Assembly: GCA_964187785.1 (NCBI GenBank)
Contig: OZ076409.1
Location: forward strand, 23,872,001-23,936,000
From: Amphiscolops sp. MND2022
Taxonomy: Eukaryota
Reading direction: 5' to 3'
Length of the DNA stretch: 64,000 nucleotides
The translations under genes and the position numbers were made by a program. The first letter of the stretch is position 1. Every line of letters starts with the position of its first letter. The notes beneath the pieces were generated by a model. That model had not been told where the DNA came from, ran no database searches, and saw nothing but the letters and a program-made list of their open reading frames with translations. Below are positions 6,256 through 62,574 of the stretch, piece by piece.

Positions 6256-6637
6256 CTGCGGCAATCAACTTTAAATCAATGTCAGTGAGGCTCAATTCTG
6301 TCGTTTTTGTTTTAACAAAAATCCTGATACAGGTGGTTTTTCATTCAGCACACAAGAACTTTTTTATTTTGCAATCGAATTGTTGTTTCATTTACTTATT
6401 TTTTTGCTTTGCTTTTATGTAATTTCCGATTTTCGATGAAAAATCCAGCAAAAACTTATTTTTTATAAAGCCATTCATACAAATACTATATTTCATAAGA
6501 ACATAACATTTGACTTCGGAAAATGTTTCTAGAAAAGTGCTCCATGGAAAATAACTTGAACTTTATTTGAATGAACAACAGAAAGAAACGAGCAGGTCAA
6601 GAGTTTCAGGTCACCAAGCGTTCAAAGGTCAACTAAC

Positions 6638-22171: not shown

Positions 22172-22455
22172 GCTAGTCATACTGGTTGATTTAATTTAAT
22201 CAGAACCATTGGTATCATTCCATGGTTATTTTTATTCCCTGTGATTCAAAAAAATTGTCAAATCATTGAACTTGGGATTTATAGAACAGATTATTAGTTC
22301 GATAATTGGTGATATCACCAATTATCGAACTAATAATCTGTTCTATAAATCCCAAATTCGATGATTTGACAATTTTTTTGAATCACAGGGAATAAAAATA
22401 ACCATGGAATGATACCAATGGTTCTGATTAAATTAAATCAACCAGTATGACTAGC
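22172..22455. repeat. 284-bp spacerless palindrome (142-bp arms, 2 mismatched pairs)
   Basis: Centre GAT|ATC at 22313/22314; arms checked base by base. Confidence 0.95.
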
Positions 22456-30393: not shown

Positions 30394-30999
30394 GTGAGTC
30401 TAGTTTATTGTTGTTTATTTAAAAGAAAAATAAGATTTATTCCAACTTCAGGAAAATTCTGCAGAAAAACGCGAAAAATTTTCTATAGAGGCTTAGCTGC
30501 ACTGCAAATGCTGCATTCCCAGTGTGAAAACTCTTGCAACTCTTGATAAGAATCTTGGATATTCCTGGGTTTCTTAGTAAGAGTCTTGCCAAGAATCTTA
30601 CCAAGAAATCCACGAATTTGCAAGATCTTGCAAGATCGTGCCAAGAAATTCAAGAGATGAACGAACAAAAGTGAACGAAAACAAACAAAAACCGACGCCA
30701 ACTGCAGCTTGATCAGTGTACCTATTATGCCGTAGCTTTCCGCGCTACCAACCAAGCTATCACATTTTGAAATTCAATACTTTGTGTTGTGCTATATCCA
30801 ATACTTCATAGAATGATTGTGTAGCTGGTCGTGCGAACCACAGCGAAGTACTTGTAAACAAAATTACTGGTTGTTTTACAACTTATTTATTCTCTTGACA
30901 CTCTTGATAAGACTCTTACCAAGAGTCCTATCAAGAATTTCAAGAGGTTTGTGTGAAGCAAGAATAAACAAGATCTTATCAAGACTTTCAAGAGTAAAC

Positions 31000-31268
31000 T
31001 GTACTGACCTACATTAATAACCAATAGTATTTAGATGTTTATAGAATGTTCTAGAATGTACATTTATTTGTTATTGAATGATTGTAAATCTCTACTCCTT
31101 CAGAGAGAGAAAACTAATAATCAGTATTCAGTTGACTTCCTTTTTGTTCTACTCCTAACACCTCGGAATAGTTGTAATAAAGTAAGCTAGCTAGCTTGTC
31201 TCTCAGCCGCTTTTAGTAGTTGCGTATAAGACCATCAAAAACAATAACCAACCATTAAAAGCAGCACA
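31000..31268 (+). repeat. 5' LTR of giant element
   Basis: TGTACTGACC...GCAGCACA; 2 substitutions versus the 3' LTR; contains AATAAA. Confidence 0.97.
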
Positions 31269-31271
31269 ATT

Positions 31272-31284
31272 TGGTGCGACTTGT
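31272..31284 (+). promoter_or_regulatory. Primer binding site (TGGTGCGACTTGT; primer tRNA not assigned)
   Basis: TGG located 3 nt after the LTR end; the first 7 nt fit tRNA-Gly-type 3' ends but the rest does not. Confidence 0.65.
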
Positions 31285-31507
31285 AAAATTTTTCTTTTGC
31301 CTTTTCTCCTGGATGATTTCTCTTCTCTCAACAATCATACAAATACCACTCTCCATATTTGAAATTCTCTGGAATTGCAGTGAAATCTTTCTAGAATTTC
31401 TTGAAAGTTTGGTCTGTGACTTTCTAAATTTCATTAATAAATACATCATCGTTCGAAACACAATTTCTCCACTACAACAATCAACTTTAATATAACAATT
31501 TTCTTCA

Positions 31508-31840
31508 CTACCGGTTTATCACGTTTTCTAACACGTTGACACGGTTCTTCTTCCTGTTCTTCTAGCCATACCGGTTTATCACGTTTTCCATTACGTTGAA
31601 ACGGTTTCATTTCGGACTGATTTATCCATTGTGACACAGTTCTGTTTTTCTTCTTTTTCCAGACTGATTTATCCAAAGTGACACAGTTCTGTTCTCCATA
31701 CTGATTTATCACAGCTAATCCGGAAGCTTGTTGAAACAGTTCTCTGATGTTTGTCTGGTTTATCAAGGTTTTCTAACACCTTTGACACAGCAACGTTTGT
31801 CTGGTTTATCAAGGTTTTCTAACACCTTTGACACAGCAAC
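31508..31840. repeat. Degenerate repeat array in the leader (about 7 units with a G(G/A)TTTATC...TGACAC core; exact 46-bp duplication 31749-31794/31795-31840)
   Basis: Direct inspection. Confidence 0.8.
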
Positions 31841-33195
31841 TTTCTTCAATCCTGCTATCTTGAACGTCAGGTGGACTCCTGGTGTAATAGTTGACTGAGT
31901 GCATGTCCAACTCCGCTCACCTATAAGCACATACGTCTCAAGATCAACTTCGTGTTGGCAGAAAACCTGGATTTTCTACTTTTACGTTTCGGATCCCCTT
32001 TCTACAAAATTTCCTACAAAAAAATTTCAGAAATAGACTCTGAAAACATAAAAAAGGCAACCAAGACTAACTACCAAAAACAACCACGCACTATTCCCTT
32101 TCTTTCCTTATTGTCGACAAACAATACAAATAAATTCACAAAACTTAAATAATACAAATAACTTCAAAAATGTTCTCAATAACCAACAAAAATAACAATA
32201 ACAAATAAACTCAAACTTACCTCAAGTACTTCCAATAATAATAATTTTAACATAATCCTACAAAACAATTATTTTAACAAAATACAACATACAATTTTCA
32301 CAACTCTTTTGCTTTAACACTTAAAATAAGGCATGTAAATAACACAAACAAAGTAAAGTTAGTTTTCTACTTTCAGGCACCCACAATTCCTATCCCCTCC
32401 CGTAAGACTTAGCCAATCAGACAGCCTCACCAGCGTACTCTGATTCTAAGACTGACTAAAAACCTTAGTTAAGTGTAAACGTTTTCAAGGAGATTCGAGA
32501 GGACACCGAACTACGTTCGAATCTTCAAAATTCTCAGGAAGTAAAAGTAAAAGTAAAAGAAACAAAGATCAAATTTTGATCTTGATCAGTATTGATCAGA
32601 CTTTGGATAGTGGACGTTGATTGTTCAGAGTTCCACTCCTTTAGTCTTAAAACACACAACCCACTTAAAATTAAATCAACCTTAGTTTTTCTGGACGTGT
32701 CAGTAACCTTATGTTAGACACCTTAAAGTGATCCAGACTTGAAATAACATTTAGTTTCTGTTAGCAATCCTTTGAGATTGAATACAGATCCTACTGCACC
32801 CGCTTATTTCTTCTCTATCCTAAAATATTAACTTCTCAAATAACTTCAAATTACAATACAACTTATATGAACCCAAACCAAGAAATTTATCCTTTCAACT
32901 TTTACCTTCCACCAATTAGCTCACTTCAAAACCCTACACCAAACGATTTTGAAAGATTAATTGAACGATATCAACGATATTTCTTCTTTATCATAAGTCA
33001 ACAAAGAAATTACCCAAGAGCTCGAACTTAGAAAATCTTTATACAAGACATTTCAACGTCATAACCTTCACATTATAACATGTGGGAAAAGGTTACCACA
33101 GTAGTACTCATTACAACATACACGTTTTGTGTCTTATTTATAGTTTGTGTTCTTCTTGAAAAAATACCTACAGTGATAAGAGATAAACTTTAAAA

Positions 33196-36100
33196 ATGTC
33201 CTCAACGACAACCCCTCTACCTTTCCAAACTCCCGTCATTAAAAATGCAAAAGTTGTAAAATTAGAACTAAACCCATTTCTACATAACATTATTTCACAT
33301 TATACACAACCACTCCCATTTGAAAATGAACCACACACAATTGAAACAAACCCTCTTATTAGAGAACATTTGGACACATACCTTTTCTATATTAGATATA
33401 AAGTTTTAACAATCACCGAAGAATACCCAACTTTTCAAATATCCTTTCCTCAACAAAAACTTAACTCATCTCATATATACAGAAGAACAATAAACCCAAT
33501 AAACCTTCAAGTTCCTATTAAACAAGTTTTTCATGCTTTTCTAAATAATGTAAAAGACCACAATTTAGCACACGAAATTCCAAAATATAGTCCAAATGCA
33601 CTCGACGATCTTCAACGATGCATAGACAATTTCGACGTAGAAATTATTGAAACATTGGTTAATCCTGAAGATAACCCTCATCATTGGTTACAAGCTGATA
33701 TATTACGAATTCAAAATTTCATCTACCACTACCTCAAAGACCTAACATTAAATGACCAAACAAGTCCTCAGATCAAAGTAATATCTTTATTTCTCAGAAA
33801 AAATTTCAGATTTAATTATCAACTATTATGGTCTCAACAAGATCAATCTGCTTTTACAGAATTTCCAGATCATTTTACATTAGAAGAATGTTTACCATTC
33901 ATCATCAGTGAACAAAATGAACACCCTTACTTTCATAAACCACAATTAATTACAAAACAAACCTTAGATTACATACGTTTCGATCCTCTATTAATTACAG
34001 AAAATGATCTATTCCCAGATAATAGACCTTACCACTATCAACAAAATTCTCAAGATCAACAAAATTTACATTTTAACACTAACAATTCTACTGAAGATGA
34101 TAACACCGATCAGGAAAATGCAACCCAACAACAAAATCAACCTGAAAACTATAACGATAATGAGTTTACTACCCAAGAATCTACAATCTCAACATTTAAT
34201 CCATCACAAACAGGGACATCAACATCAGTACATACTCACTCCTTTAGAGTTCCCACTAGAGTTGTAAATCAAAGACAAAATATACATAGTCCTCAATCTC
34301 ATTTAGATACATCTCCAAACCGTAATATAACTTTTAACCTTCCACATACAGATGACATAAACGATGAAACCCATGATACATTACAATATAATACTATGAC
34401 TACATCTAGTGCTCAGAATACTTCTGCTAATGTTGCATCTCCAACAAGAACTACCTCTGATTCTACAAGATACATTACTCGACCTAGATATGATCCTCCA
34501 TCAATTCCCTCCGCCTTTCGCTCAAACAGATCGACCACTTCTAGTAACAATTTTAATGATAATCCTCAAACTTCCAACCGATATTACGATCCATTTAATT
34601 ATAACTTTTATCCTCCATCAAACACAACTACCAATACAAATATAAACCAAAACCACTCTCAAATTAATACAATTTCAACAACACAAAACCCCTTCATACA
34701 ATTATCAAATACCATTACGTCCCAGAATATATATTCTCAAAATCGAGGAACCTCGTGTACTTCCATTTCTTATTCTAATATTACACAGGATTCTCAAAGA
34801 AGACTTCATAATCCTCCACTTACACATATACCAACTGATCCTCTGTATCGAATGCATCCAAATCCAAATCTTAACCCTAATCCTAACCCATCCTCACCAA
34901 ATACAATCCAACATATACCTCCACCACTCACACAACAATTAGCTTCTTCACCCCAATATCTACCAATGCCACAAGATACCTTTATAAACATGTCCGCTTC
35001 AATACCAGAACCTATGAAACCTTTTGATGGTTTGGACCATTCTTACACCCCCGAAGAATATCTACAACAAGTCGAAGCAAGATTAACCTTCGCCATAGGT
35101 GAAGAACCTCAAAATAATCCTATAAAATACAAATCTTGGCATAATAGACGCATGGCTTACATACAATGTTCATTAATAGGAACAGCTCTCGATTGGTACA
35201 CTAACCTCCATATATCTTATAAACAACAATGGAATTCCTTTGTACAACTATTCAAAAAACAATTCTCATCTCAAAAAACTGCTTACTACGCTCAAGTAGA
35301 AGCTATGTCACTCATGAAAAAGGATAATGAAACAGTTCGCCACTTCGCCCTTAGAGTACAACAATTAGTTAAAAAGGGATGGTGTAATGAAAATGCAGCT
35401 ACCATAAATCTCAAAAATAATGAAATCTTTACAAAAGGGATACCAAAGAAGTTAAAAGATTTTGCCCATAAACGACAAGTTAAACTTGTATCAACATTAC
35501 TTGAACCTTCAATACCATTTCATACACTTGTTAGACATGTCGATTCAGAAGATATTGCTAATGAAAAAATCAGAACTAACGACTTAGCCCTAGAAATAAA
35601 CAAAGTATCGCTTGAAGAGGATACTAACAAAAAAGAATTTGAATACGAAGATCAGATAATGGTTACTCAAACTGGAGACCCAAATAACAAAAGCAAACCA
35701 GCGTATAGAAAATATTGTTCCTATTGTCATAAAAATAATCATAGTATTTCAAATTGTTATCAAAAACAACGTGATGACGAATACCAGAAATACAATAACC
35801 AAAGATCACGAACTCCTCAACAATCCTTTGTACAATATTTTCGCAGTAAACCTAATAATCCTCAGGAAAATCGAAATGAAAATACAAACTCTTATTCCTC
35901 AGATAATGATCGTAATAAATATAATCAAAACTACTATAATGATAGATACAGAAACAATGATAGATATCGTAGCAATAGTAGAGAATATTCGCAAAACAAC
36001 TATAGATCAAACTCTCGACAAAGATATTATAATCGATCCCGAAGTCCGTATAGATCTCGATTTGATAATTATTATCAAAGAAGAACTCCATCTAGATCTC

Positions 36101-37902
36101 CATATAGATCTCCATACAGAAATAACTCAAATTACAGATATAATTCTCGCTCAAGATACAGATCTCGTTCTCAATCACAAGAAAACTCCTTTAAACGATA
36201 TAATTATCCATATAGATCTCCATCAAGACCTAGAGATTTTAGATCAAGATCTAGAACACCCTCAAGAAACAGACAACAAAACAGAATAAATCAAGTAGAC
36301 GTTAAACCCCCAAAAGAAAATGATAGTACAAAATTTGAAATCCACACCTGTCAAATGACTGAAATAGCTAATACAATCACCCCTTATAGTTGGTTTTATC
36401 CACTATATATTCACGCCTCTGAAACAAATGACAACATATTACCTTCAAAATTAGAAATCTTATTCCTTTTAGATACTGGAGCTTCCATATCTGTTTTGAA
36501 TTTACCAACATTTCATGTAATTTCCAAACAATTAAACATCAATGTTCCAACTAACCTCCAAAACAAAAGAGCCAAAACTCTTACAGTTGCAAACCAAACT
36601 GAAGTACCAATAATACATTATATTTCGATGACCTGTTTCACTGAAGTAAATCACAAAACACGATCCTTCAATATCGAATTTGCAGTAGCAAATATCAAAT
36701 ACAACATTCTTGGAACACCCTTTTTCAAAAAGCACATCCAAAATATTGATTTTCAACAAGACATTATGACGTACACAGAACAACATCCAAAGCTTTCAAC
36801 AAAAACTACATTTTCTACATTTACAGAAAAGGATTATCCATATATTTCTTACATTTATACTATTAAATGTAAGGAACCAATTCACTTTAAACCAAGGTCA
36901 GGAAAAACCATACATTTTCCAATTAAAAACTATTCAAATCTACATTTTGAACTCGAAGATAATACGAAGTTCTACCCAACAAACCCATATACATATTTTT
37001 TACAAAAATTTAAAAATATCTTTTATTTCTTAGATATGATAGTCAATGAAAAAAGCAAAGACTCATGTGCAACTATAATTCAAAACTTTACATCTTACCC
37101 AGCTACATTACCACGAGGAATTATTGGATATATAGAAATACCTATTACGCAAACAACTCCTCCTCACTACAGAGTTAACGATGTAAATTCACTCATTCAC
37201 TCTGTAATACATGCTTATCACCCTGATACCACAACCCCGATTAAACAAATTCCATATACAGATATGAACTTATGTACTAGGGTAATACCACAATCCCTAT
37301 TAGAAATAAACAAGATAGAAATTAACGACAAAACACTTCAACTTCCTATACCTTCTGTTACTGGAAACCTTCGACCTTCAGATAAAATTCGAAAAGATTT
37401 CCCTCCACTACCCTATTCTACAGAAAACCAACCATTCATCAAGAAGTTCAATTTCGAATACTCAGATTTAACCGATACAGAATATGTAAATCTCTGCAAT
37501 ATTCTAATTAACAACCAAAATTGTTACGCCAAACATAAAAACGACGTAGGAAAAATTTCTACTCCTTTTCGAATTAGAATAAAAGATAATTGTAAACTTC
37601 ACGCACAAAGACCTTCTAAAGTACCTATCCAGTATAGAGATAGACTAAATAAACTTTTACTAGAACTCGAAAAATACAACATCATAAAACAAATTGGTTC
37701 GACAACAGATGCAAAACATACTATTGGAACAACATTTTTAAACCCTTTAATTATTATCCCAAAAGGAGACGCAATAAAAGTTGTTTTAGACGCAAGACAT
37801 CTAAACTCAAACACTAACCAAGAACTTGAATCTTGGCCTATTGAACCTTTAGCTCCTCAATTAGCTAGAGCAAATAAAAAAACAAATCAACTATTGATCT
37901 AA
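33196..37902 (+). CDS. gag-pol: Gag-protease-RT(N-terminal) polyprotein, 1568 aa
   Basis: Capsid-like LIGTALDWY...WNSFVQLFKKQF; CCHC knuckle CSYCHKNNHSISNC; RS-rich tract; protease LLDTGAS; RT start (IKVVLDARHLN). Ends at a 1-nt lesion in an A7 run. Confidence 0.92.
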   Translation: MSSTTTPLPFQTPVIKNAKVVKLELNPFLHNIISHYTQPLPFENEPHTIETNPLIREHLDTYLFYIRYKVLTITEEYPTFQISFPQQKLNSSHIYRRTINPINLQVPIKQVFHAFLNNVKDHNLAHEIPKYSPNALDDLQRCIDNFDVEIIETLVNPEDNPHHWLQADILRIQNFIYHYLKDLTLNDQTSPQIKVISLFLRKNFRFNYQLLWSQQDQSAFTEFPDHFTLEECLPFIISEQNEHPYFHKPQLITKQTLDYIRFDPLLITENDLFPDNRPYHYQQNSQDQQNLHFNTNNSTEDDNTDQENATQQQNQPENYNDNEFTTQESTISTFNPSQTGTSTSVHTHSFRVPTRVVNQRQNIHSPQSHLDTSPNRNITFNLPHTDDINDETHDTLQYNTMTTSSAQNTSANVASPTRTTSDSTRYITRPRYDPPSIPSAFRSNRSTTSSNNFNDNPQTSNRYYDPFNYNFYPPSNTTTNTNINQNHSQINTISTTQNPFIQLSNTITSQNIYSQNRGTSCTSISYSNITQDSQRRLHNPPLTHIPTDPLYRMHPNPNLNPNPNPSSPNTIQHIPPPLTQQLASSPQYLPMPQDTFINMSASIPEPMKPFDGLDHSYTPEEYLQQVEARLTFAIGEEPQNNPIKYKSWHNRRMAYIQCSLIGTALDWYTNLHISYKQQWNSFVQLFKKQFSSQKTAYYAQVEAMSLMKKDNETVRHFALRVQQLVKKGWCNENAATINLKNNEIFTKGIPKKLKDFAHKRQVKLVSTLLEPSIPFHTLVRHVDSEDIANEKIRTNDLALEINKVSLEEDTNKKEFEYEDQIMVTQTGDPNNKSKPAYRKYCSYCHKNNHSISNCYQKQRDDEYQKYNNQRSRTPQQSFVQYFRSKPNNPQENRNENTNSYSSDNDRNKYNQNYYNDRYRNNDRYRSNSREYSQNNYRSNSRQRYYNRSRSPYRSRFDNYYQRRTPSRSPYRSPYRNNSNYRYNSRSRYRSRSQSQENSFKRYNYPYRSPSRPRDFRSRSRTPSRNRQQNRINQVDVKPPKENDSTKFEIHTCQMTEIANTITPYSWFYPLYIHASETNDNILPSKLEILFLLDTGASISVLNLPTFHVISKQLNINVPTNLQNKRAKTLTVANQTEVPIIHYISMTCFTEVNHKTRSFNIEFAVANIKYNILGTPFFKKHIQNIDFQQDIMTYTEQHPKLSTKTTFSTFTEKDYPYISYIYTIKCKEPIHFKPRSGKTIHFPIKNYSNLHFELEDNTKFYPTNPYTYFLQKFKNIFYFLDMIVNEKSKDSCATIIQNFTSYPATLPRGIIGYIEIPITQTTPPHYRVNDVNSLIHSVIHAYHPDTTTPIKQIPYTDMNLCTRVIPQSLLEINKIEINDKTLQLPIPSVTGNLRPSDKIRKDFPPLPYSTENQPFIKKFNFEYSDLTDTEYVNLCNILINNQNCYAKHKNDVGKISTPFRIRIKDNCKLHAQRPSKVPIQYRDRLNKLLLELEKYNIIKQIGSTTDAKHTIGTTFLNPLIIIPKGDAIKVVLDARHLNSNTNQELESWPIEPLAPQLARANKKTNQLLI

Positions 37903-40900
37903 TGTATGCATATGCTCATACACCATTAGATGAAGAAACAATTAAACTTACAGGATTTTCATCCGGTGACAAATTATACGCCTTTATCCGTGGATTTTAC
38001 GGATTAAAAGGACTTCCAAACTTTTTCACAAAACAAATGTCAACTTTCTTTAGATCACTTATAGACAAACGTTCTGCGTTAGTTTATATAGATGATATTC
38101 TATTACTCGCAAATGAAAAACAAGAAATGTTTGAACTTATAAAAGAATTACATACAATAGCATCTCGAGAAAATCTCAAACTTGCACCTGAAAAATCGTT
38201 CTACATGTTACTCAAAGTAAAATTCCTTGGACATGAAATTGGTAACAACACAATTAAACCAATTCCATCCAAAATTGAAGCTATTGAAGGAATCCCATCA
38301 CCAAAAGAAAAGAAAGATGTTATGCAATTTCTTGGCAGTGATAACTTTTATTCAAAATTCATTGAAAAACTTCATATAAACCTTAAACCATTGTATACAT
38401 TACTACATGATGATGTTAAATTTCAATGGACACCTGAATTAGAAAAACTATTTCAAAATGTTAAAAACGCAATGACAGCAGACACTGAATTAACAATACC
38501 CAACACCACGCATCCATTTTTAATAACAGTAGATGCTTCGTTAGTAGGTTTAGGCGCAGTCTTATTCCAAATGAACGAAGAAAATAAGATGAAAGTAATC
38601 TCTTATAACTCCAGAATTCTCAATACACAAGAAAAAAAACTTTCAACTTTAGACAGAGAACTTCTTGCAATAGTTTACGCATTACAAATATATGAATTTT
38701 TGATCATTGGATCTCCTCATCCTATATATCTCTTCACAGATCACAAGCCTTTACTACATTGTTTCGCAAAGAAAGGAAATCTTAGTCCTAGATTCTATAG
38801 AGCACAAATGCAATTAACCAAATTTTCCAAATTAAAAATCATTCATACCCCTGGAAAAAACTTAACTGTAGCCGATATGCTTTCAAGAACCTTTACAAAA
38901 GAACAACTACAAGTACACCAATTACGACACAAACAATTACCACCTCAAATAGATTTCTCTATCATGAAAGATAATCAACTCAAACCAGTACATTATTTAG
39001 TAAAACATGAAGAAATAAAATATAATCAAAAGAATGATTGTCATCCTATCCTTGCTGACTACGGAGACGACCAATTCTCCATCCGTATAAATAACAAAGG
39101 AAAAGATATACATATAAAGCCTTTAGATTCCTTCTCTTTTCAATCTATTGTTCCATTCGAATCAAAATATAAAAAGCCTACAAAAAAACAAGCAAAATCT
39201 CTTTTACAACAATCGACAATTTTTAATGATACTGACATTCTTAGTGATGAAGATGAAATAACACCATCAAATAATATCCAACAACAAAACTCGAACATAG
39301 TAAAAGAATACACCCTTGCTATACAATATCCTACCAAATCTGACTATTGTACACAACAAGTTCCATTTTTTGATCCATCCTTTTTCAAATACAAAAAATA
39401 TTTTAATTACTTCTTCCTACCAGAAGATACACAAATAACCATTGAAACAATAAAAACTCAACAAAATCAAGATACTGTTTTACAAAAGGTTTACCAATGG
39501 ATACTTAATAATGAAAGACCCTTACAAAAAGACCCAACAATTGCAGCTAACTCTTTCTTATTAGTATATTACAAACTCTTCAACCAATTATATATTAATC
39601 ATGATACAAAAATTATTCACATAGATTATGCTAATCTTCACGATTCCAACCCGAATCAAAGAGACAAAATATGTCTACCATTTAAACTTTTCCACACAGC
39701 TGTTAACAAACTTCATGCTCATGGACATTCAGGAATAAAAATATCCATCAAAGCTTTCAACCAATTTTACTTCATACCGTACCTGAATAAATGGATGTCA
39801 ATATTCATCCATGATTGCATTGAATGCCAACAAAATAAACATATTAACCAAAAATTACAAACTGCATCTATACAAACCTTCTCAGAAAATGCTTCATATT
39901 TTAATTACCGAATATCAATGGATACAAAAGGACCTATAAACCCACCATCAAATCAAAATTCATACATTCACGTTATAGTAGACGCTTTTAGTCACTTTGT
40001 AGTAACAGTACCTATAAAACAAAATAATGCTCAAAACGCTGTTAACTCATTACTACATCATTGGATAACAAAATTTGGACCTCCTGTATACCTAGTTACC
40101 GACCGTGGAACAGAATATATTAATTCAGAATTTGCAAATCTTTGTACCACAATGGGAATTAGACATTCACCAAGAACTCCTTATGCACCATGGACAAATG
40201 GTTTAGTTGAAAATCAAAACAGAAATCTTGGAACTCATCTCAGACTTTTCTTACGTAACACTCCAGAAAATTGTTCAACTCAAGTCCATATGTATGCTTA
40301 TGCACATAATTCACAACCATTTTCTGAATTAAACTTATCTCCATATGAAATAGTATTCCATACTATACCCAGAATTCCAATCAACTTTGAACTCAATCTC
40401 CAAAGAGATACATATAGAAATTGTACTTCTCAATATTGTCAAGAATTACCACTTCATACACACTATGACAAATCAAATCTAAATCCTTTCTTTCATAAAA
40501 TTTTATCTAAACCAATTCCACAATGGATCTTAGCTACTGAAATTGCTATGATACAGATATACCATACGGTATATGAAAACACAAAAAGAAAGATTAATTC
40601 CTATGCTTATTTTAACAAAACATATCACAATCCAAGACCCTTAGATATTGGTACATTTGTACTAAAAAGAAATTTTCTTCATGTTCATTTTTCCGATAAA
40701 TTAAAACCTCTCAGAATTGGCCCATTCAAAATTATTAACAAACTCTCCGATATAACATATGAAATTGTTAATCAAGATGGTTATACATCGCACATACATA
40801 GAAATCATTTAATTCCTTACTATCCAAAAGAACCAGTTATTTTCCCTTTCATACAACAATATAACCCTCATTTATTTAATGACTGTCATTCAAATACAAA

Positions 40901-41231
40901 CGATCAAATAATTAACTCTGATGAAGACAAATTTACAGACGAAGAACAATTTCCTTCCACAACATTTAATAAAGAAACGGATATACCATCCACGATTGAC
41001 TTGCAACCAGAACCATTTAACCAATATTCTTCATTTCCATATAAACAAAAAGAACAAATTCCTCAAAATACCTCCCTGGATAACCAATCAGATATTCATG
41101 ATTATGATAATTTTATTAATCCCCGAAGACACTCCTATAATAGATACAATTTCCGCCCACAACCAAGAAAAGACTACCGACTCTTCCTTGGTGAAAAGGA
41201 TATAATTTCACTTTCTCAAAAATCCTGCTGA
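37902..41231 (+). CDS. pol: Pol continuation: RT (YIDD), RNase H, integrase (HHCC, DDE, GPF)
   Basis: VYIDDILL; TVDASLVGLGAVL...RELLAIVYAL; HAHGHSG...CIECQ; MDTKGP, TDRGTEY, NGLVENQN; IGPFKI. Lies in the -1 frame relative to ORF1. Confidence 0.95.
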   Translation: MYAYAHTPLDEETIKLTGFSSGDKLYAFIRGFYGLKGLPNFFTKQMSTFFRSLIDKRSALVYIDDILLLANEKQEMFELIKELHTIASRENLKLAPEKSFYMLLKVKFLGHEIGNNTIKPIPSKIEAIEGIPSPKEKKDVMQFLGSDNFYSKFIEKLHINLKPLYTLLHDDVKFQWTPELEKLFQNVKNAMTADTELTIPNTTHPFLITVDASLVGLGAVLFQMNEENKMKVISYNSRILNTQEKKLSTLDRELLAIVYALQIYEFLIIGSPHPIYLFTDHKPLLHCFAKKGNLSPRFYRAQMQLTKFSKLKIIHTPGKNLTVADMLSRTFTKEQLQVHQLRHKQLPPQIDFSIMKDNQLKPVHYLVKHEEIKYNQKNDCHPILADYGDDQFSIRINNKGKDIHIKPLDSFSFQSIVPFESKYKKPTKKQAKSLLQQSTIFNDTDILSDEDEITPSNNIQQQNSNIVKEYTLAIQYPTKSDYCTQQVPFFDPSFFKYKKYFNYFFLPEDTQITIETIKTQQNQDTVLQKVYQWILNNERPLQKDPTIAANSFLLVYYKLFNQLYINHDTKIIHIDYANLHDSNPNQRDKICLPFKLFHTAVNKLHAHGHSGIKISIKAFNQFYFIPYLNKWMSIFIHDCIECQQNKHINQKLQTASIQTFSENASYFNYRISMDTKGPINPPSNQNSYIHVIVDAFSHFVVTVPIKQNNAQNAVNSLLHHWITKFGPPVYLVTDRGTEYINSEFANLCTTMGIRHSPRTPYAPWTNGLVENQNRNLGTHLRLFLRNTPENCSTQVHMYAYAHNSQPFSELNLSPYEIVFHTIPRIPINFELNLQRDTYRNCTSQYCQELPLHTHYDKSNLNPFFHKILSKPIPQWILATEIAMIQIYHTVYENTKRKINSYAYFNKTYHNPRPLDIGTFVLKRNFLHVHFSDKLKPLRIGPFKIINKLSDITYEIVNQDGYTSHIHRNHLIPYYPKEPVIFPFIQQYNPHLFNDCHSNTNDQIINSDEDKFTDEEQFPSTTFNKETDIPSTIDLQPEPFNQYSSFPYKQKEQIPQNTSLDNQSDIHDYDNFINPRRHSYNRYNFRPQPRKDYRLFLGEKDIISLSQKSC

Positions 41232-41415
41232 AATACGGAATACAGAAAGAAATACACACAAAAAAAGTTTGAAAGAAAGAAAAAGTTTGAAGCTTAATGC
41301 GAAAATAAATGAAATATTTTTCACGAATGAGAATAAAAGAAAGAAATCCTAATTGATATAAAACTATAACTATTTTACAAGCTGAAACTAACTATCATAA
41401 CGCAACGATTTCAAA

Positions 41416-42872
41416 ATTGATAGACATATTCACTCACCATCATCAACTACAAATAACTCTTCTTCTAGTTCAACACATTCACTCCAAAGATTACCTGAAT
41501 ATACAGCATATTTAAACTCAGATACAGACATACTGGATTCCTCATCCTCAAATCCCAGTCCATCCGCTCCATATACTCCTGATAGAGTACCAACAACACC
41601 CACTAATACACCTATATCCCAAACTCAACCACAAATATAAACAACTCAATCACAACCTATTTCACGAAATCTAACTTTTTTAGAAACAAATTCACCACTT
41701 TCTGACTCTAATGATGAAACACCTACAATATCAAATACACAAGATACTTCAGATATTTTGAATAGACCTCCTCTTCCACCGATTACTACCACTCGTTCTA
41801 TTCATATCCCTGATCCTAGCTCAGTCCTACAATACATAAATTCTTGTCCACACAAAGTACCAACTGCAACGAAAACAAAAAGAAAAACTCCTTTACCTAC
41901 ATTATCACAAAATCTTGATTTACCATCATCAAGTAATATCCCAATAACATTTTTACCAGAACCTTCATTAAAATCACCAACGAAAAAATCACAACAATAC
42001 CCAACTCCTTCACCATCGGTACTAAGTTCCTTCACATTTTCTCAAATATATCCCAAGCTTGAATTACAACGTGTACATTCAACAACTACCTCTTCATTAA
42101 CAGATTTATATCATAAAGATAAAGACTCTGACTCAACTGCTAGTACTAGAGTACCAAGACATAATTATAACCTTCGATCTCAACCACAAAGAGATTCTCA
42201 AGAATTACAATCCTTAACTAGTTCAAGTACAAACTCAAGACTACTTCGACAACACGCCCAACCCAGATTGGACACTTCTTCTCTTTCCTCATCTCAGCCC
42301 ACTATACCATATTCTCTATCACTACCATTTCAAATCACATCAGGATTTGAAACAGCCTCTCTTCTTTCTGAAGAGCCAGCAACTATATCAGATAGCGCAG
42401 CTAATTTTTCACGAGTTTACTCACCTAGTTCAATAGCATCAAACTCCTCTATACAATTACCTGAATTTTTTTTAGAAGAATTCTCAAGACCTCCATCGCC
42501 AAATCCTCACGAATATCCTATTCGTGTTAACTCAAAAATTGTTCGCACGCTTAACGAAGATCCTCGATACACGGTATTACCTGCAAGATTTATAAACAAT
42601 AGTTCACTCTCAACTCAAAAAAAAAACAAAGAGAAATACGAAGATTACAAGAACAACAACTCACATTAAAATTTGAAGTAGAAGTCACATTCAACTCGTT
42701 AGGACCTCATCCATTCTCTCTTTCAACAAGAGTAGCACATAAAACAACCCCATCACCATTCATTGTTACCTCCATTTCCTACCTTTGTGACGCAGATTTA
42801 CCTGAGATTAGAACAGGACATATAAACTTTTTTAATCCCTACTCAGGACTCAATTATAGATCAATATTTTAA
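41416..42872 (+). pseudogene. Accessory ORF3 (~485 aa reconstructed): Ser/Thr/Pro-rich N-part with PSAP and YNLR motifs plus ~120-aa globular C-part
   Basis: The 41758-42669 frame extends back to an ATT in start context (tcaaaATTg) with one TAA at 41638. A frameshift in the A-run at ~42620 continues QREIRRLQ...NYRSIF* to 42872, 2 nt before the env ATG. Confidence 0.7.
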
Positions 42873-42874
42873 CC

Positions 42875-45456
42875 ATGAACCAAATCACCTTTACCTTTCA
42901 TTTAATATATATAATACAAGTTGTTAAATACACGTATATAATAAATATAGTTCACTCTTTAGTTCACCCTTCAACTGTTCCCAAAGTTGACACCACCAAT
43001 TCCGAAAATCATATTTCAGACCAAGATCCTAACATTTTAAACTTAATGGTATCTCATTATGATTGTGCAAAACAAAATAACTTAAGACAATTCAGTTTAT
43101 TAAATGTAGAACCATGTAAACAAGCACCCTCAGATATACAACACACAAAAACCCAAGCAACAGTTTACGTTAGAGCAAAAGCCAAAAGAATAAAAGCCTT
43201 TAAATGTGAAGCATATATAAAGACTGAGAAAGTCTGGTGTTCACAAACATTCACATCTAGTAGACGATATGATCGTTTACAATGGGGACAAAACACATTA
43301 GAACTTCCAAAAATATTGGACCCTATTGAATGCAAAAATATGATCAGATATTTAAACGCGACTGATAGCGAAGAATTAAACAACTACAATATACAAAGCT
43401 CTTTCTCATTGTTCGACAATAGTAATTATCAAAACACAATTGAACGAATTCAGACACCATTTAGAGTAAAAAAATTAAATACATGGCATATTGGAACCTT
43501 CGTATTTGACGAAAATTATCCTGAATGGATAGTTAATGTTACACAAAATACATACTCTAGATGTCGATCAGACCGCGAACATTTAATTACCCGACAAAGT
43601 TGGAAACTTAGAATTGTTAACACCGCAATAGATTATGACGATAAAAACAATCAATTAATACATGACGGACACATATTACCATGTTATCATTCAGACGGAT
43701 TTTGTAAACCATCGACCAAAACTCCATATACATTAACACGGTTTGATGAAAAATTTTGCCTCATATTTCAACTTCAAGAATTCATTGGTAGAATGACACG
43801 AATCAAAGATAGATATTGGATAGAAACCGATACCTTCATTGAAACTTCAAACATCACACAAAAACTTCAAACCGAAGGAATACAAGGAAGAATATACCCT
43901 AATATAAAAACACCACAATCAAAAGTAAGCAACCCAAGCCTTTCTCGATTTGAAATATACCCAATTGCACAAACCTTCTGTGGAAAACCTGAACCATTAT
44001 TTTCAACACAATAAGATGACATCTTTGTTACGTACTTAGATGGTTTTGATATGAACACAGGATTACCAAAACCACACTCAATAATTGACCAAACAATTAG
44101 TGGAAATATAAAATATGATGATTCAAACAAAAGGTATATATTCCCTGCATTGAATATATCAAACAATTTCGCCACTTTAGACTATGATGCCCACATTAAT
44201 ACAAAGATTGATTTCACAATAAATCATGTATTTAAATCCATGACAGTACAAGAACTAAACACTCTTCATACAATATGTGAACTAGAAAGAACTCAACTGT
44301 TAACAATACTAGCAATGTCAGTTAAAAATCCCCAATTAGCCGGTTTTCTTTTAACTGGAAATCGTAGTAACTTTCTCTACGTTGAAGGATCTACAGCATG
44401 GCTGTATGATTGCCCTTATTTTATATCACCACTATACAAGGCAGATAAATGCTTTGATAGAATTCCTATACACTACAGAGAAACGATAATGTATGTTGAC
44501 CCAATAACAAGACAAACTTTTAACAACGCAACACCAATTGAATGTGGAAATAACCCACAAAATATAATAGAATTAGATCCAGATTCCAACGACGGAGATT
44601 TTTATGTGTTAACACCAGAACCACTCAAACGAGAAGCACCACAAATGTTTAAACCTACCCAAATTAAAACAACAATCACTCCTAATACATTTACCGCCCA
44701 AGATGCCGGTATATACTCAAATGCAGAATTAGATCAATTCTGGAATAGAGTATTATTTGCTAAACATTCAGACACAACTCTCCAATTACTTGGAAAATCA
44801 TTAAGCTATGATTTCATTTCAATGCATAATGAAAAACACTCATACTCAGGACATAATCCCTATAATCATTTAAGGATTGGAGTACATGACCACTTGTTAA
44901 ATCTTTTACCACTTTTTAACCCTGACTGGTTCAGTCAAGCATTCATTAATTTCTTTGGATACCCATGTTATGTTTTAACCCAATGTGGAATTTATTTTTC
45001 AACATTCCTTTTCATTAGAGAAGCTTTAACATTTTTACTCAAATTCTACAGAACAATTAGCATAAAATATAATCTCCAAAGCAACATTTCCATTTTGAGT
45101 TCAATAGCCCATGGATTTTTTAATATAGTTACATCGGAAATGGTAACCGATTTAAATAATACAGGAAAACAAAAACGGATATATACTAAACACAAAATTA
45201 CAACAAGTGAAAATGATAATATCCTATTACCGGAAAAAGAATTAAACAATAAACGAAGACAAGACACTCTGATACTGACTCCCCTTATTTACCTCCTAAA
45301 TATTCCAGTAAGAACTCAACATTTCAATATCCGCAAAAGACACTCCCAACTAATGTAAACGATATTAATTCTCAGGACTATGACCCAATAATGTCAAATG
45401 TAATAGCTGTACCGGAAAGTCCTGCTAAAGTCTTTATAAAATTCAATCCCTCCTAG
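42875..45456 (+). pseudogene. env: Envelope glycoprotein, class III fusion protein-like (herpes gB / chuvirus G type)
   Basis: Hydrophobic N-terminus; YDC...FSLLNVEPC, C-x10-C; ICELERTQLLTILAMSVKNPQLAGFLLTG...GSTAWLYDC; C-terminal TM at ~44942-45040. ORFs 42875-44014 and 44051-45358 are one frame broken by a single TAA; a tail frameshift near 45260 leads to the stop at 45456. Confidence 0.85.
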
Positions 45457-45876
45457 CTGAAAAGCAATAACAAAAAAAAACAAATTAACCTCAAGAAAAG
45501 TTCACAAAATTATCAACCACATTCTTCTCAGTTTCAACTTTCATTCACACCCAAATTCTCACTCGGACCGGTCTCTCCTTTTCTACTCAACTCAACTCTC
45601 AACCAGAAGACTTCAACTGCTGGATTTTCAGTCCATCTAAACAACCGAAATCACAGAAGTTTATATTCCTGGAATAGATGCCACTGTGATTGTTGATGTT
45701 TTCAACCCATCATTGACCCAGTATTCCCATATTGTAAGTACAATTTAAACTTTAATTTTAACAAACAATTTAATGGATAGAAAAGACATAACAAAATTTT
45801 TCCTTAGTATTAGAAATAATGTAATCAAATGTTATAATTATTATTTTAGCTCTACAAAAACACGCAAGTTTAAATA

Positions 45877-47155
45877 ATGGAATCCTTGCCCGAAATTCTA
45901 ATCCCTCTGAATTGCTTGCAACCCCTTTGAATATAACTATTCAACAAAATGTTAACGAAGACAATAACTCTTCCTCCAACTCTCAAGACCCTATAGAAAA
46001 TATCCCTATTGAACAAGTAGATCATGTTAACACAAGATCTCAAAAATAAAAGTACCCAGATATAACCGCAGATAAAACTTTTATGGAATCTGGCGCTTGC
46101 CCTCCTTTCATAAAACCAATTAAACAAGATGAAGATAGAGATTGTGCTTTAGTTCCTATTCTCTCGTCGAAACAATTCACATTTCAATCTCAGTTAACTT
46201 CGTTATACATGATTCCAACAAAATACAAATTCATCATCAGAGAATTTAAAAATGATTATCATACATCAATTGCTTCAAAATTGATTACCCCATATGATTG
46301 GTGGTTAAACAATAAAGTGAAAATTTTCTCACTTCAATACAACTTCCTCAGACCATCTCCGTATGATCTTCGAACAGAAGAAAATGATGCAAATTTTTTG
46401 CCATATCAAATCAAAAAGGCCCACCATATGACTTATCAAAAGTTCCTTCAATATAAAGAGCCCGATAATTATATATTCTCGACTCCAAATATACATCGCC
46501 ATTCACTTTCAACTCAGAATATTTAATAGATCATACCAAAACAAAAGGAAAACTTAGAAATTATGACCCGCTGAAACAAAGTTTTCTCTTCCTTCCAAAT
46601 GATAACCCAAAAAGACCAATCATTGTTCCACAAGAATACCTCATTCTAAATGACGATTCGTTACTACAAGAAGATATACCTCAACATATATCTGATCCTC
46701 TTCCTCCACTTCAACAAATAGCCTCTCAACCATTGGGAGACTGTGAAAAGTCTTATTTCCACGCAATGATCAAAAAGGGATATTCAAATAATGAATTAAT
46801 TTTCATTATTTCCCACCTGCTTTCACTTCTTACAAATGGAAATCACAAAGAATATAAAAAGACAAAACAAGAATCGCCTAAGAAAACCAAAAATGATATT
46901 CCTCAACCACAAAGTTTTCGCCCAACAGATGAATTACAGAAATATACAGAAATTCTGAATATCATAAAACCGTATCATCATCCAAACCGAGATATTCTTA
47001 TAACAATCGCTGAAATCGTAAATACCCTTGAACAAGCTCGAAGCATAATACAAAATATCGTATTTGATACGACAAGAATTAGCCAATCAGCTTTGTGCAT
47101 TCGCACATCCTTAGACGAATTCAACTACACTATTGAACAAATGCATCGATCTTAA
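45877..47155 (+). pseudogene. Accessory ORF5 (~425 aa reconstructed), unknown function
   Basis: ATG at 45877, then fragments 46083-46526 and 46733-47155, joined through two frameshifts and one stop; same A/C-rich codon bias as gag-pol. Confidence 0.55.
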
Positions 47156-47676
47156 CTGCTAATTATGGGATAATAGCTTTAAAGTTGTTAACACTTATCA
47201 CTTAATCTCTTAACAACCTGTCAAAATTAATTGAATCTACACGCATATGCCTGCTATGCATGATTCTAATACATGCTTGATATTAAAATACACTTTTAAA
47301 ATGAAATAACATAAAAATTTCAATCACGACATAAAAATTTTCAACGAAATTCTTCAATTGCTCCTCCTTTTAATGGACCGATTTCAACAAATAAGTACTT
47401 ATATGAAAGATATTTAAATACCCTTCAAAAGACTTTCAAAATACAACAACTTAATTCTTAAAATTAAAAAGTTATAACATCACAAAATTCAATAAAAAAA
47501 TGTCAACTACGAAATTCTATTTTCAAAGGAACTTTATTGTAAACAAACTAATCTATTTTAGGTGAATATCGTCACAACTGCTTCTTCAGCATTCCTTCCT
47601 CCTCTCAGGTCACCCATTCAAGAAGAATTCCGAAGTATCTTCTACAGCTTTCAACGAAATTTTCTCATTCTTCAAT

Positions 47677-48153
47677 ATGACAACTATCCACTCTGGCGAC
47701 ATTGACTGCCCGATAGCTCCTTTTCTTTCAATCTCTTCAGCTCGATTGCGATCCTTGATCCTGAAAAAGCATTTAACGACATTAAATGCGCAGCTTCGAA
47801 CAGAAAAAAAGGCAGACCCACATCTTACAAGGATGATATTGCTTAATATGTTCCAAATATTCCAAATAACAAGAATAAATTTCGACCAATGTCTCCATAT
47901 TCATAAACATCCTGACACTTATTTAACTCGAAAGGATGCCACTACCCAAACAGGACATACCACCATCAAACCCAAGCGTTTAATACGAACTCTATCCAAT
48001 AGAATGCGTTCCGAAATGGAAAAACAACGTCTAAATTCGTATTGGCCCTCAGATGACAATGATGACACTGACGAAGACCTTCAAAAAGATCCCCCAGAAG
48101 CACTTATAGATGATAATTACCCACACAAAACATATACTTACGTTTCCTTCTAA
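47677..48153 (+). CDS. Accessory ORF6, 158 aa, unknown function
   Basis: Intact ATG-to-stop ORF inside the provirus, downstream of a branch/acceptor-like ctaatctattttag at 47548-47561. Confidence 0.45.
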   Translation: MTTIHSGDIDCPIAPFLSISSARLRSLILKKHLTTLNAQLRTEKKADPHLTRMILLNMFQIFQITRINFDQCLHIHKHPDTYLTRKDATTQTGHTTIKPKRLIRTLSNRMRSEMEKQRLNSYWPSDDNDDTDEDLQKDPPEALIDDNYPHKTYTYVSF

Positions 48154-49188
48154 TATCAACAGACGCCACCAACAGCACCCGTCTACTCCCATCTTCGAAT
48201 TCCACATCTTCAACGAGCAACAGATCAGCACCCATCTTCAACTTCACCGCCGCCCAACAGTTGCCCACCTTCATTCATCTGCTGGCCCTTCTTCTTCCAT
48301 CTTCCAATCGTCCATCGTCACCCACATGCTCAGCCAAAGATGATCGATGAATAATAATAAAGAAAACTCAAAGAAAAACATTGTGCATGATAACATTTCG
48401 AAAAAGTTTCAAACTCATCTAATACGTAGAATTCAAACTCTCATCTAAATTATTCATTATGTAGTTATTATTTCAAATTTCATCCCCACCCACATTTATT
48501 TGCCCAAAAATTTTTATTCACACCTGTACCGATATTTATTTGCTTTATTTTTAAAGAATAATTAGTAATAAGTATTATTTTTCGGTGCTATCCTACCCAA
48601 CAAAAAATTCACAATTATTGTCAACAAATCTTTTCAAATTTCAACAAAACCAGCTCCAAATCAGATCAAGCACATTGTTCAGATCAAATTCGAATAATGA
48701 CAGACCCAAGTTCTCAATGTTTTCAACATTTGTTACATAACAAACCCGCCAAAGTTAATTACAACCTGAAATCTTTTCAAACGTATTTCACGTTCGAAAA
48801 AAATTTTTTCTCAACAATATTATTTCTTTGACTCTTTGACCTCTAACTCCTATGATGTTTGCTCACGTTTGTTCAATGCGAAGTTCATTCAAAACTTCAA
48901 CAGAAGCATAAAATTGAGCATCTACCAGTTCAAAAAACAAGCCGACGAAAGCATAGTGAAAAAGAACACTTTGACGCTTTTGAACTGTAGTCGCACCTAC
49001 GAGGTGTCAATCAAAATTTTGACAAATTCGAGGTACACCAATGAGTCGAACTTACACCACTTTTAACGAGACTTATGCCAATCATCCATCAAATGAAAAA
49101 TGTTAACTAGCTGAAACGCTAAGAACATTTAAACAAAAAATTTTTCTTCATTTCAATTAATGATGCTACTTTAAAATTTTCTTTTATT

Positions 49189-49204
49189 TAAAAACCGGGA
49201 TGGA
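49189..49204 (+). promoter_or_regulatory. Polypurine tract
   Basis: AAAAACCGGGATGGA immediately before the 3' LTR. Confidence 0.6.
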
Positions 49205-49473
49205 TGTACTGACCTACATTAATAACCAATAGTATTTAGATGTTTATAGAATGTTCTAGAATGTACATTTATTTGTTATTGAATGATTGTAAATCTCTAC
49301 TCCTTCAGAGAGAGAAAACTAATAATCAGTATTCAGTTGACTTCCTTTTTGTTCTACTCCTAACACCTCGGAATAGTTGTAATAAAGTAAGCTAGCTAGC
49401 CTGTCTCTCAACCGCTTTTAGTAGTTGCGTATAAGACCATCAAAAACAATAACCAACCATTAAAAGCAGCACA
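49205..49473 (+). repeat. 3' LTR of giant element
   Basis: 267/269 identical to the 5' LTR; followed by TSD AAAC. Confidence 0.97.
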
Positions 49474-49863
49474 AAACGGGAATATGTAAGAATATGCAAG
49501 ATCTTGGCAAGAGTTCCAAGAGTTTTTACACTGGGTTATCATTTAATCAGCATGTGATAATCTTTGGTTTTAAAATAACGCCAACTCGAAAGTAGCTACC
49601 GGCTTGAGAGTATGATTTTTGAAACAGACATCTGTTTTTCGTTTTGTTCAGTTAGACTGAGAATCTTCAGCAAGGTATACTATTTAAAATATATCTAGTG
49701 AGCTTGCCGTACTTATGTACCATCGACCTTTGTATCTCTGGTCATTTTCCGCCCTCACAATTTCTATTGTGTAGAAGGAGGAAAATCATCATCTGTGTTT
49801 TTTCCCAAATTCCGCCAAGAATCCATTTGTGATATATCGATTAATGATATATATTCTATTCAA

Positions 49864-60500: not shown

Positions 60501-61138
60501 GGTGTTACGTTAATTTGGTTTAATTACTATTTATCTGAATTGGGAATTCAACTCAAAAATTGAAGCTAATTCCATAGTTTGTCTTTACTTTTCCTAGCAT
60601 CATTGGAAATTCCAAAGCTGAAAACATTAGTCATAGCATTTCCTTCAAGTAAAAATTCAAAATCAGGTATTAGTTGTTCACGTCGGCGTCATCTCCGCGT
60701 CATTTTCCTACGAACCAAAGCAGTAAAACAGGGAATCATTTCCGGTTTGACAGACTGAAGTAATATCTACTTCCTGCTTGGGAGGAAAGCAAAGGACGCC
60801 GAGCTGAAATGATATGATCGTGGTTGATGACTAATGCTAGATCGAAATTGTCGTGTCTTAAAAATTGACGAGTTATCGACGTAAAATTGGGAACAAAATG
60901 ATTTTTTCATCGAAAATACAGGAAATGACTAATTGTTCGAGGAAAATTAGGATTTTAATCGTGATCAAATGACGCTAGGAGGATATATATAGGATGATTT
61001 TCATTGACTCAGGGACTCAGTCTTTTGCAATTGTTTAATTCAGTTGAATTCTCAATTTCGCTAAACTCTCATCTCAACTAACTTTGTTGAAAATTGTCTT
61101 TGGAAAAATCAATTCTTCAAGATAAAGTTTTCTTCAAA

Positions 61139-62574
61139 ATGTCTACAACTAGAAGCCAGAAAAGAAGGAATGAGCAACAAGGCGACAAGGACGTAAGTGA
61201 AGGTTTTATTTCACCGATAGTGGTAGAAAATCCGCGTTCTTCAAACCAGGACGTAGACGTGTCGGGTCCTTCCAGACCAAAATCTCCTCGAATTGAAAAT
61301 AGTTTCTTGGAGAGTTTAAGGGCATCCTTGAAAGATGAGATAACATCAGAAATTAAGACTCTTCTTGCCGAATCCCAGAGAGAGATGTTGAAACTACTAA
61401 AACCTGAAACAAGGGGAAGCATCAGGGAGAATACTGAGGAAGAAGTAGAAGAGGAGACTAGAAATTTTTATACCCCTACAAAGTCAGTGAGAATAAGTTC
61501 AACTCAAAACGACTCGATAGCATGTCGTAACATGGTGACAGGAGTTTTAACCGACTCCACTAACCAGCCAAAAAGAACGAAGGCCGGTCCCAAAGTCAGC
61601 CAACGTCAAAAGAACGTCCAGTTGTGGCAAGGACCCTGTTTACATCGGAAAAAGGTGACAGCACAACGCTGCCCATGCCAAAGGCACTAACGGCATCTCT
61701 CCCAACGTTCGACGGGAAATTGGAAAAATTTGAATTATTCGAAGATCTTTTCCGCAACAACATAAAAATGTATCCCCATCTCACGGAAATACAGAAAATT
61801 AACTATTTCCACTCGCTACTCAGAGGAGACGCCCTCCAGGCGTTTTGCAATATAGAAGACACGAAAAAAGATTCCTTTGACGAAATAATGACGATATTCA
61901 AACGACGTTTCGGGGACTACCTGTCTACGGCTAAAGCTAGATGCGAATTCGATGCGCTCAGATTTGACCCCTCGAACCAGAAACTCCATGAATTTCTAGA
62001 CGTACTTCAAAAAACGGCCAAAGAAGCCTTCGGATCTGAAGCCCAACAATTCATTGACAAGGCAATATACGCAAAAATGCCAGATCATGTAAAAAAGATA
62101 CTAAACAGGGCGTATCTCGAAGACAAGCCATATAATGACATTGTGCTACACTTGGAAAGAGAAATGAGGCTTAACGGCCTTGGGGCGCCAGATGAAGTAA
62201 CACTGGTACCACTAAATAAAGTAGAACCGGCCCCAACAAAAACTGAATCCAAACAAGTCGACAGCACGACGCAAAATGTCAAAAAGGGATATTGCTTCTA
62301 CTGCAACAAATTTGGACACTACAAAGCGGAATGTAGGAAAATGAAGAGAGATAAATGAATGCAGATCAGGAAGAACAATGGTCAAACCAACTCTAGTGCA
62401 GGCAAATCGCTTAAATGCGACACATGCGGCAAACCTCACAAAATGGAAGATTGTTGGAACGGAGCCAACTCTGCCAACGATCCACGACCTAAGCGTCACA
62501 ATAACCCGGAATCAAAAAGGGACGTTCCCGTCCAACCAACGACAGCTAACTCTGTCATTGAATCAAAAAACTAA
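61139..62574 (+). pseudogene. gag: gag of the 60503 element (one frameshift at ~61585, one TGA at 62356)
   Basis: LPTFDGK..., LLRGDALQAF, two CCHC knuckles CFYCNKFGHYKAEC and CDTCGKPHKMEDC. Confidence 0.85.

Follow-up and report, generated by a model that had tools for sequence, protein, structure and literature searches.

A conserved gene lacking an AUG start immediately precedes env in an 18.5-kb Ty3/gypsy element and carries candidate ESCRT and chromatin motifs

How env-carrying Ty3/gypsy elements leave the cell is little known, and one such element raises the question of what is encoded by the reading frame that ends immediately before its env gene. A preliminary description of the locus, drawn from the 64,000-nucleotide stretch of DNA analysed here (the window), had read this frame as a ~485-aa protein with a PSAP late-domain motif in an S/T/P-rich N-terminal part and a beta-rich C-terminal domain. 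It had suggested that the protein may be a matrix protein acquired together with the glycoprotein gene, and that env may be translated by coupled termination–reinitiation. A homeobox exon (KVWFQNRRTKHKR; 5725–6264, minus strand) and other frames in the flanks indicate that the host is an animal.

The element and its fourth gene

The Ty3/gypsy element spans 18,474 bp (31000–49473; ~18.5 kb) and has the gene order gag, then RT–RNase H–integrase, then an env-like fusion glycoprotein gene. Its LTRs, of 269 nt each, differ from each other at two positions and are bounded by a 4-bp target-site duplication (AAAC). This copy is a recent insertion, yet its genes are broken. Its main parts are as follows.

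31000–31268, plus strand: 5′ LTR with TG...CA ends; the duplication AAAC precedes it at 30996–30999
33196–37902, plus strand: gag–protease and the start of RT (Retrotrans_gag, E 2.7e-7); frame break near 37880–37900
37878–41231, plus strand: pol, with RT, RNase H, integrase and SH3 (Pfam); tail with YNFRP at 41145–41159
42875–45358, plus strand: env, a chuvirus-type class III fusion protein; stop at 44012–44014, 3′ end disturbed
49205–49473, plus strand: 3′ LTR; AAAC follows at 49474–49477

Both pieces of env match the Pfam family Monjiviricetes_fusion (PF24664; E 3.5e-5 and 1.2e-19), and no other Pfam family matched env at E≤0.1. Between pol and env lies a gap of 1,643 nt, occupied by a fourth gene (ORF3).

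Several further features were recorded in and around the element. The primer-binding site (TGGTGCGACTTG; 31272–31283) has a 9-nt complement at ~48988–48998, near the 3′ end of the internal region, which may be due to chance. In gag, a long Arg/Ser/Tyr-rich stretch with RS-like repeats follows the zinc knuckle (35900–36290). At the 3′ end of env, an overlapping frame (45253–45456) has PPKY, a possible PPxY in the Env tail. After env, several broken frames (158, 228 and 195 aa; 45877–48153, plus strand) gave no Pfam match above the cut-off and are read, from sequence, as probable additional accessory genes. Other Ty3/gypsy-like elements occupy 15174–20070 (minus strand; direct repeats at 14827–15032 and 19882–20070) and 61091–64000 (plus strand), and a near-perfect palindrome of 284 nt lies at 22172–22455 (142-nt arms, 99%, no spacer).

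In the window copy, ORF3 is broken twice, by a premature stop and at an A-run, and therefore lies in three pieces; its first codon, at 41416, is ATT, and it contains zero in-frame ATG. The features of the gene are listed below, all on the plus strand.

41416–41640, plus strand: ORF3 piece 1, ending at the premature stop 41638–41640; LPEY at 41491–41502
41560–41571, plus strand: PSAP within PSPSAPY, a Tsg101-type motif (residues 10–13 if the start is 41533)
41641–42669, plus strand: ORF3 piece 2, in which the frame breaks at the A-run 42617–42626; it includes the disordered motif region and the C-terminal domain's first half
42046–42060, plus strand: IYPKL, an ALIX-type YPxL motif by sequence
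42166–42180, plus strand: YNLRS, the same five residues as the nucleosome acidic-patch motif of lamin A
42247–42261, plus strand: RQHAQ, a motif with no assigned role, kept across families
42337–42354, plus strand: TSGFET, a TSG-hydrophobic-acidic-T motif kept across families
42487–42872, plus strand: C-terminal folded domain of ~130 aa, predicted as a hairpin, two helices and a five-strand sheet from natural copy P0151; the frame break splits it
42603–42872, plus strand: ORF3 piece 3, the rest of the C-terminal domain
42870–42877, plus strand: TAA-cc-ATG junction, with the ORF3 stop TAA at 42870–42872, 2 nt, and the env ATG at 42875–42877

The position of PSAP, the 2-nt distance between the ORF3 stop and the env ATG, and the S/T/P-rich character of the N-terminal part (S+T+P 48% in piece 1 and 40% in piece 2) are as previously described. 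The ~485-aa frame is not continuous in the window copy; it is open in natural copies, over 437–504 aa of mostly low-complexity sequence. In family A, three proteins of 493–504 aa are uninterrupted between the PSAP region and the final strand, and family B supplied 13 whole ORF3 proteins. The comparisons below use such natural copies in place of a rebuilt window frame.

Protein searches yielded 416 sequences, which best-match assignment split into 180 of family A (that of the window element), 83 of B, 97 of D and 8 of C, E and G; the 48 sequences unassigned to a family were left out of the counts. These rows are representatives of 90% or 50% clusters, often decayed and related within a family, and the counts given below are not independent. 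The family reference proteins are 29–47% identical to each other, and a tree of the C-terminal region places A and D as sisters (support 96/91). Four frameshifted copies continue from ORF3 into env, and because such fusions occur in families A, B and D, ORF3 adjoins env in all three. On this comparative evidence, ORF3 is a real, conserved fourth gene between pol and env.

A profile search of 1.84 billion proteins returned, among the best 150 of 180 matches, sequences that all resemble this element family and none with a viral name. Pfam has no family for ORF3, a PDB sequence search gave no match and the Atlas no usable match, and scans of viral, metagenome and prokaryote contigs produced no useful ORF3 locus, with weak matches of 25–47 residues (L001–L004). 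A search of sequencing runs listed one containing part of this DNA, in contigs that stop short of the PSAP site and of the ORF3–env junction, and listed no RNA run. An origin of ORF3 as a copy of the integrase tail was rejected, as similarity is confined to a 25-residue YN[LF]R stretch (E 0.076). The YNFRP of that tail is close to the PFV Gag chromatin motif, and the 25-residue stretch is 40% like the YNLRS region of ORF3.

Conserved motifs and the C-terminal domain

Conservation of PSAP, on which the late-domain proposal had been built, held in part. Among rows covering the site, PSAP is kept in 36/45 of family A and 9/12 of family D, and in 0/30 of family B. Its identity in family D is 0.90 vs 0.57 in the flanks; in family A it is kept no better than the adjoining block (0.90–0.97 vs 0.87–1.0). 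Because A and D are sisters, PSAP appears, as far as seen, to be a trait of one clade (A+D). A second late-domain class is more widely kept: YPxL is present in 83/97 rows of A, 37/45 of B and 31/40 of D, as well as in single C and E rows, and the lone family G row has YPxI in its place. YPXnL motifs form the ALIX-binding class (PMC8402826).

Three other words are kept across families: YxLR (A 85/97, B 39/47, D 47/51), RxHAQ (A 83/98, B 39/50, D 50/56) and SGxxT (A 95/112, B 44/53, D 33/63). The last belongs to the TSG-hydrophobic-acidic-T motif, which we take to resemble a beta-TrCP phospho-degron. A Y-N-L-R core with its arginine anchor lies in the disordered region and is kept in A, B, C, D and G. 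The ORF3 YNLRS is identical letter for letter to the lamin A motif that binds the H2A–H2B acidic patch (PMC12527912), and it also matches the GYNLRP of PFV Gag (PMC12125541), a protein that carries PSAP as well (PMC3705263).

PPxY is absent from the window ORF3 pieces and from 178 family A proteins, and LPEY is present; LPxY is a WW ligand. The Gag and Pol of the window copy have no P[ST]AP and no YPxL. As the preliminary description had cautioned, a four-residue motif can arise by chance: in shuffles of a natural full-length copy, PSAP alone appeared in ~4% and any of four late-domain words in 43%. The combination of PSAP, YPxL and [LP]PxY appeared in ~0.2%, for a motif set picked after seeing the sequence, and YNLR in 0.3–0.4%.

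The last ~130 aa, earlier described as beta-rich in appearance, are predicted to fold as such. AlphaFold2 modelling of a natural 132-aa copy with a 68-row alignment gave a pLDDT of 87.8 and a pTM of 0.72, with a hairpin, two helices and five strands; the 68-row alignment was used in place of 22 close sequences, which had given a pLDDT of 42. Foldseek against PDB and BFVD returned nothing at E≤0.001, and the widest structural search gave a best Z of 4.2 (rmsd 4.5 over 64 residues), with no chain at Z≥5. No matrix protein was among the matches of the four fold searches (PDB, BFVD), which is an absence of matches and not an exclusion. The C-terminal domain is thus a confidently predicted fold for which these searches found no structural match.

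AUG avoidance and the expression of ORF3 and env

ORF3 avoids methionine. Aligned proteins contain 18 internal Met in 29,656 residues of family A (89 rows), 1 in 14,892 of B (37 rows) and 1 in 8,266 of D (28 rows), and the decayed E/G rows have 1–3; eight other frames of the element have 0.9–2.6 Met per 100 residues. At the nucleotide level, ATG in any frame occurs twice in 41416–42874 (1,459 nt) vs 9.3 expected, a count reached in 1/1000 shuffles. ATG is at or above expectation in nine of the ten other regions tested, the 5′ leader alone being depleted too. In this 1.9-kb leader before gag (31270–33195), 8 ATGs were counted vs 18.2 expected (0/1000 shuffles as low), which suggests long-range scanning to gag. 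The candidate signals for initiation and for a separate env RNA are as follows.

41357–41363, plus strand: TATAAAA, a weak internal-promoter candidate (9 such words in the element), downstream of the intergenic ATGs 41297, 41309 and 41327
41416–41418, plus strand: in-frame ATT with a strong context (−3 A, +4 G), from which a longer family A isoform might start; the column is Ile in 21/22
41530–41538, plus strand: I-L-D triplet with CTG at 41533–41535 (A at −3, G at +4), the best candidate start codon
41711–41761, plus strand: two out-of-frame ATGs (41711 and 41714), with no others from 41416 to env; they open an ORF of 16 codons, and 41714 has a purine at −3
42825–42846, plus strand: pyrimidine tract ending CAG/G, 28 nt upstream of the env AUG, a candidate acceptor from which a spliced env mRNA could be made separately

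Near-cognate codons with a purine at −3 and G at +4 number just two in 41330–41640, the ATT at 41416 and the CTG at 41533, and both are in frame. The I-L-D triplet is present in 36/45 anchored rows of family A (3 of them mis-anchored); family D has 9 ILD, 1 TLD and 1 ILN in 11 rows, and I/T-L-D is found in 8/8 rows of family B. Upstream of the triplet, A, B and D have no mutual resemblance, and cross-family conservation begins at it. Since Ile or Thr supplies A at −3 and Asp supplies G at +4, I-L-D reads as a conserved start context. The CUG codon itself is seen in the window copy, the other copies being known at this position by residue alone. Neither candidate start is followed by a helper hairpin (z −0.5 to −1.2), an optional enhancer that would lie ~14 nt downstream, and a test on synonymous codons did not reach significance (2:4 vs 48:22, p 0.17).

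Because AUG is depleted across ORF3, out-of-frame AUGs included, scanning is favoured, and a near-cognate ORF3 start with leaky scanning to env appears to fit better than the coupled termination–reinitiation of the preliminary description. Non-AUG starts feeding leaky scanning have a precedent in rice tungro virus, with an AUU start and 895 AUG-free nt (PMC3542737). In the element, ribosomes would probably scan a subgenomic ORF3–env RNA from the 5′ end: the smaller share of them would start at the I-L-D CUG, or at the upstream AUU in family A, and most would continue through ~1.3–1.5 kb of AUG-poor RNA to the env AUG, with the consequence that ORF3 and Env would be made together at a fixed ratio. 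The subgenomic RNA may be made by an internal promoter or by splicing; in Tor3b/4b, an internal promoter situated after pol can give rise to a subgenomic env RNA (PMC4402516).

Alternatively, env could be translated from its own spliced RNA (acceptor 42846) or by reinitiation past the ORF3 stop, AUG depletion then serving only to block truncated forms of an ORF3 that would still be a late-domain adaptor. The pyrimidine tract with CAG/G so close to the env AUG agrees with this, as do reports that spliced env RNAs are usual in such elements (PMC4402516), that reinitiating victoriviruses have UAGnnAUG junctions and that pneumovirus M2 reinitiates without TURBS (PMC3542737). The 2-nt spacing, inferred from peptides, fits 4/12 read-through rows (P0010, P0084 and P0102 of A; P0366 of B) and does not fit the family D rows, P0041 or P0314. 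The 2-nt spacing also simply sets the last A of the ORF3 stop as the −3 purine of the env start. A TURBS is defined as UGGGA within 40–90 nt upstream of the stop (PMC3542737); UGGGA is absent from the plus strand at 40157–46734, and RNA structure upstream of the ORF3 stop gave no notable signal (z −0.52). Family B lacks the Ser-Gly that carries the candidate acceptor in the window copy, and the depletion extends to out-of-frame AUGs. Given this balance, we regard a spliced or reinitiated env as quite unlikely.

Proposed role of ORF3 and comparison with known systems

Judged by its motifs, ORF3 may be a stand-alone, p12-like ESCRT and chromatin adaptor co-expressed with Env, a reading we prefer tentatively to a captured matrix–glycoprotein module. 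The gene is conserved and abuts env, it lacks an AUG start, and AUG is avoided along its whole length. With the balance leaning slightly in favour, the disordered protein would act like MLV p12 or a foamy-virus Gag function freed from Gag: LYPxL would recruit ALIX, PSAP would add Tsg101 in one clade, YNLR would dock on the acidic patch of nucleosomes, and a putative anchor to the particle or to the Env tail would come from the C-terminal domain. Such an adaptor, probably of low abundance and made with Env from one RNA, would help enveloped particles to bud and the incoming core to reach chromatin. The scanned stretch exceeds the 895-nt precedent, two out-of-frame ATGs remain and the late-domain and chromatin words are short, all of which count against this view, and since the budding and chromatin roles act in different compartments, one of them could be wrong.

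Three other explanations were weighed against this adaptor. Capture of a matrix gene along with its glycoprotein partner from a negative-strand RNA virus would account for the place of ORF3, immediately before a class III fusion gene in each of three families, and for late-domain motifs in a disordered N-terminal part followed by a folded domain. The env is, however, chuvirus-type, with no match to a rhabdovirus G family, and ORF3, at 440–490 aa, is mostly low-complexity, lacks PPxY, carries a chromatin-type motif that has no role in an M protein and has two to three hundred more disordered residues than a rhabdovirus M. The matches listed in the profile search (best 150) were likewise all element-like, and capture of such a module is therefore very unlikely. 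That the motifs arose by chance in a Ser/Pro-rich ORF and serve neither budding nor chromatin binding is hardly credible: the shuffle frequencies of PSAP and of late-domain words taken singly allow it, but the same words recur in the same places in families 30–47% identical while their flanks drift, and YNLR is rare in shuffles.

ORF3 could instead be an accessory protein with a nuclear or regulatory task rather than a component of the particle, still made from a non-AUG start, with YNLR tethering it to chromatin and PSAP/YPxL being incidental or interfering with host pathways; TSG-x-x-T, from its presumed likeness to beta-TrCP substrates, would then be a phospho-degron or ligase decoy. YNLR, RxHAQ and SGxxT occur in all families seen and PSAP in one clade, ORF3 has no evident membrane-binding feature, and a weak CUG start yielding little protein (2–30%, PMC3542737) would suit a regulator better than a structural layer. 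Against this stand the retention of YPxL in A, B, C, D and E rows, the prominence of PSAP over its flanks in D, the lack of P[ST]AP and YPxL in the Gag and Pol of the window copy, and the tight linkage to env, which suggests a role in the enveloped route. Taken as a whole, a nuclear accessory role is unlikely.

The adaptor reading, extended to its full scope, would mean that a giant animal retrotransposon lineage moved the budding and chromatin-tethering jobs of Gag to a separate, CUG-initiated gene with a new fold, the ratio to Env being fixed by leaky scanning through 1.3–1.5 kb of AUG-free coding sequence; in this complete form we hold the proposal to be somewhat unlikely. If true, this would give an invertebrate endogenous retrovirus an enveloped-exit module that can be switched, coming into play only while the env RNA is expressed. 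The candidate motifs for ESCRT and nucleosome binding are conserved and named, and lend themselves to assays with short peptides. AUG-based annotation and surveys that limit the pol–env gap to 1 kb would miss ORF3, so similar genes may hide in other large elements. The literature searched, which lay mostly outside subscription journals, showed among the entries listed no account of the ORF3 family of proteins, none of leaky scanning past a non-AUG start to reach env in elements of this type, and no paper joining late domains and ESCRT with gypsy retrotransposons.

Rhabdovirus M, which has an AUG start on its own mRNA, resembles ORF3 in preceding a fusion glycoprotein gene and in having N-terminal late-domain motifs. 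It differs in its main motif, PPxY (PMC8402826), which ORF3 lacks, in the family of the glycoprotein and in showing no fold match in our searches. MLV p12 with the flanking MA is, like ORF3, a disordered region that joins late-domain motifs (PSAP, LYPAL and PPPY; PMC8402826) to a chromatin tether (PMC6021111); p12 is cut from Gag, whereas ORF3 is a separate env-linked gene with its own folded domain, and the likeness lies in the motifs. Prototype foamy virus Gag also combines PSAP and YNLR in one protein (PMC12125541, PMC3705263), but it is the capsid, and the window element has a normal, separate Gag.

With respect to expression, ORF I-II-III of rice tungro bacilliform virus shares with the window element reverse transcription, a near-cognate start and an AUG-free stretch for leaky scanning (PMC3542737). 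It belongs to a plant pararetrovirus, its stretch measures 895 nt, its downstream ORF is a polyprotein, and scanning was shown experimentally there and is inferred for ORF3. For Oikopleura Tor3b/4b, an internal promoter after pol is described, which has a weak counterpart at most in the window element, and the available text reports no intervening gene between pol and env, unlike the arrangement seen here (PMC4402516).

Additional ORFs lying between pol and env have been described more generally (PMC6431247). The closest organization is that of the errantiviruses with HSV/gB-type env (Chary and Hayashi, PMC13524379), which share gag-pol-env, LTRs, a class III gB/chuvirus-like env and many copies per animal genome. 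The main filter of that survey accepts pol–env gaps of ≤1,000 nt and 10 kb in all, the available portion of the paper mentions no accessory ORF, and because the pol–env gap here is 1,643 nt, the filter would miss the window element. Relative to those errantiviruses, the window element is distinguished by a fourth gene within that gap, by further ORFs after env and by a length of 18.5 kb.
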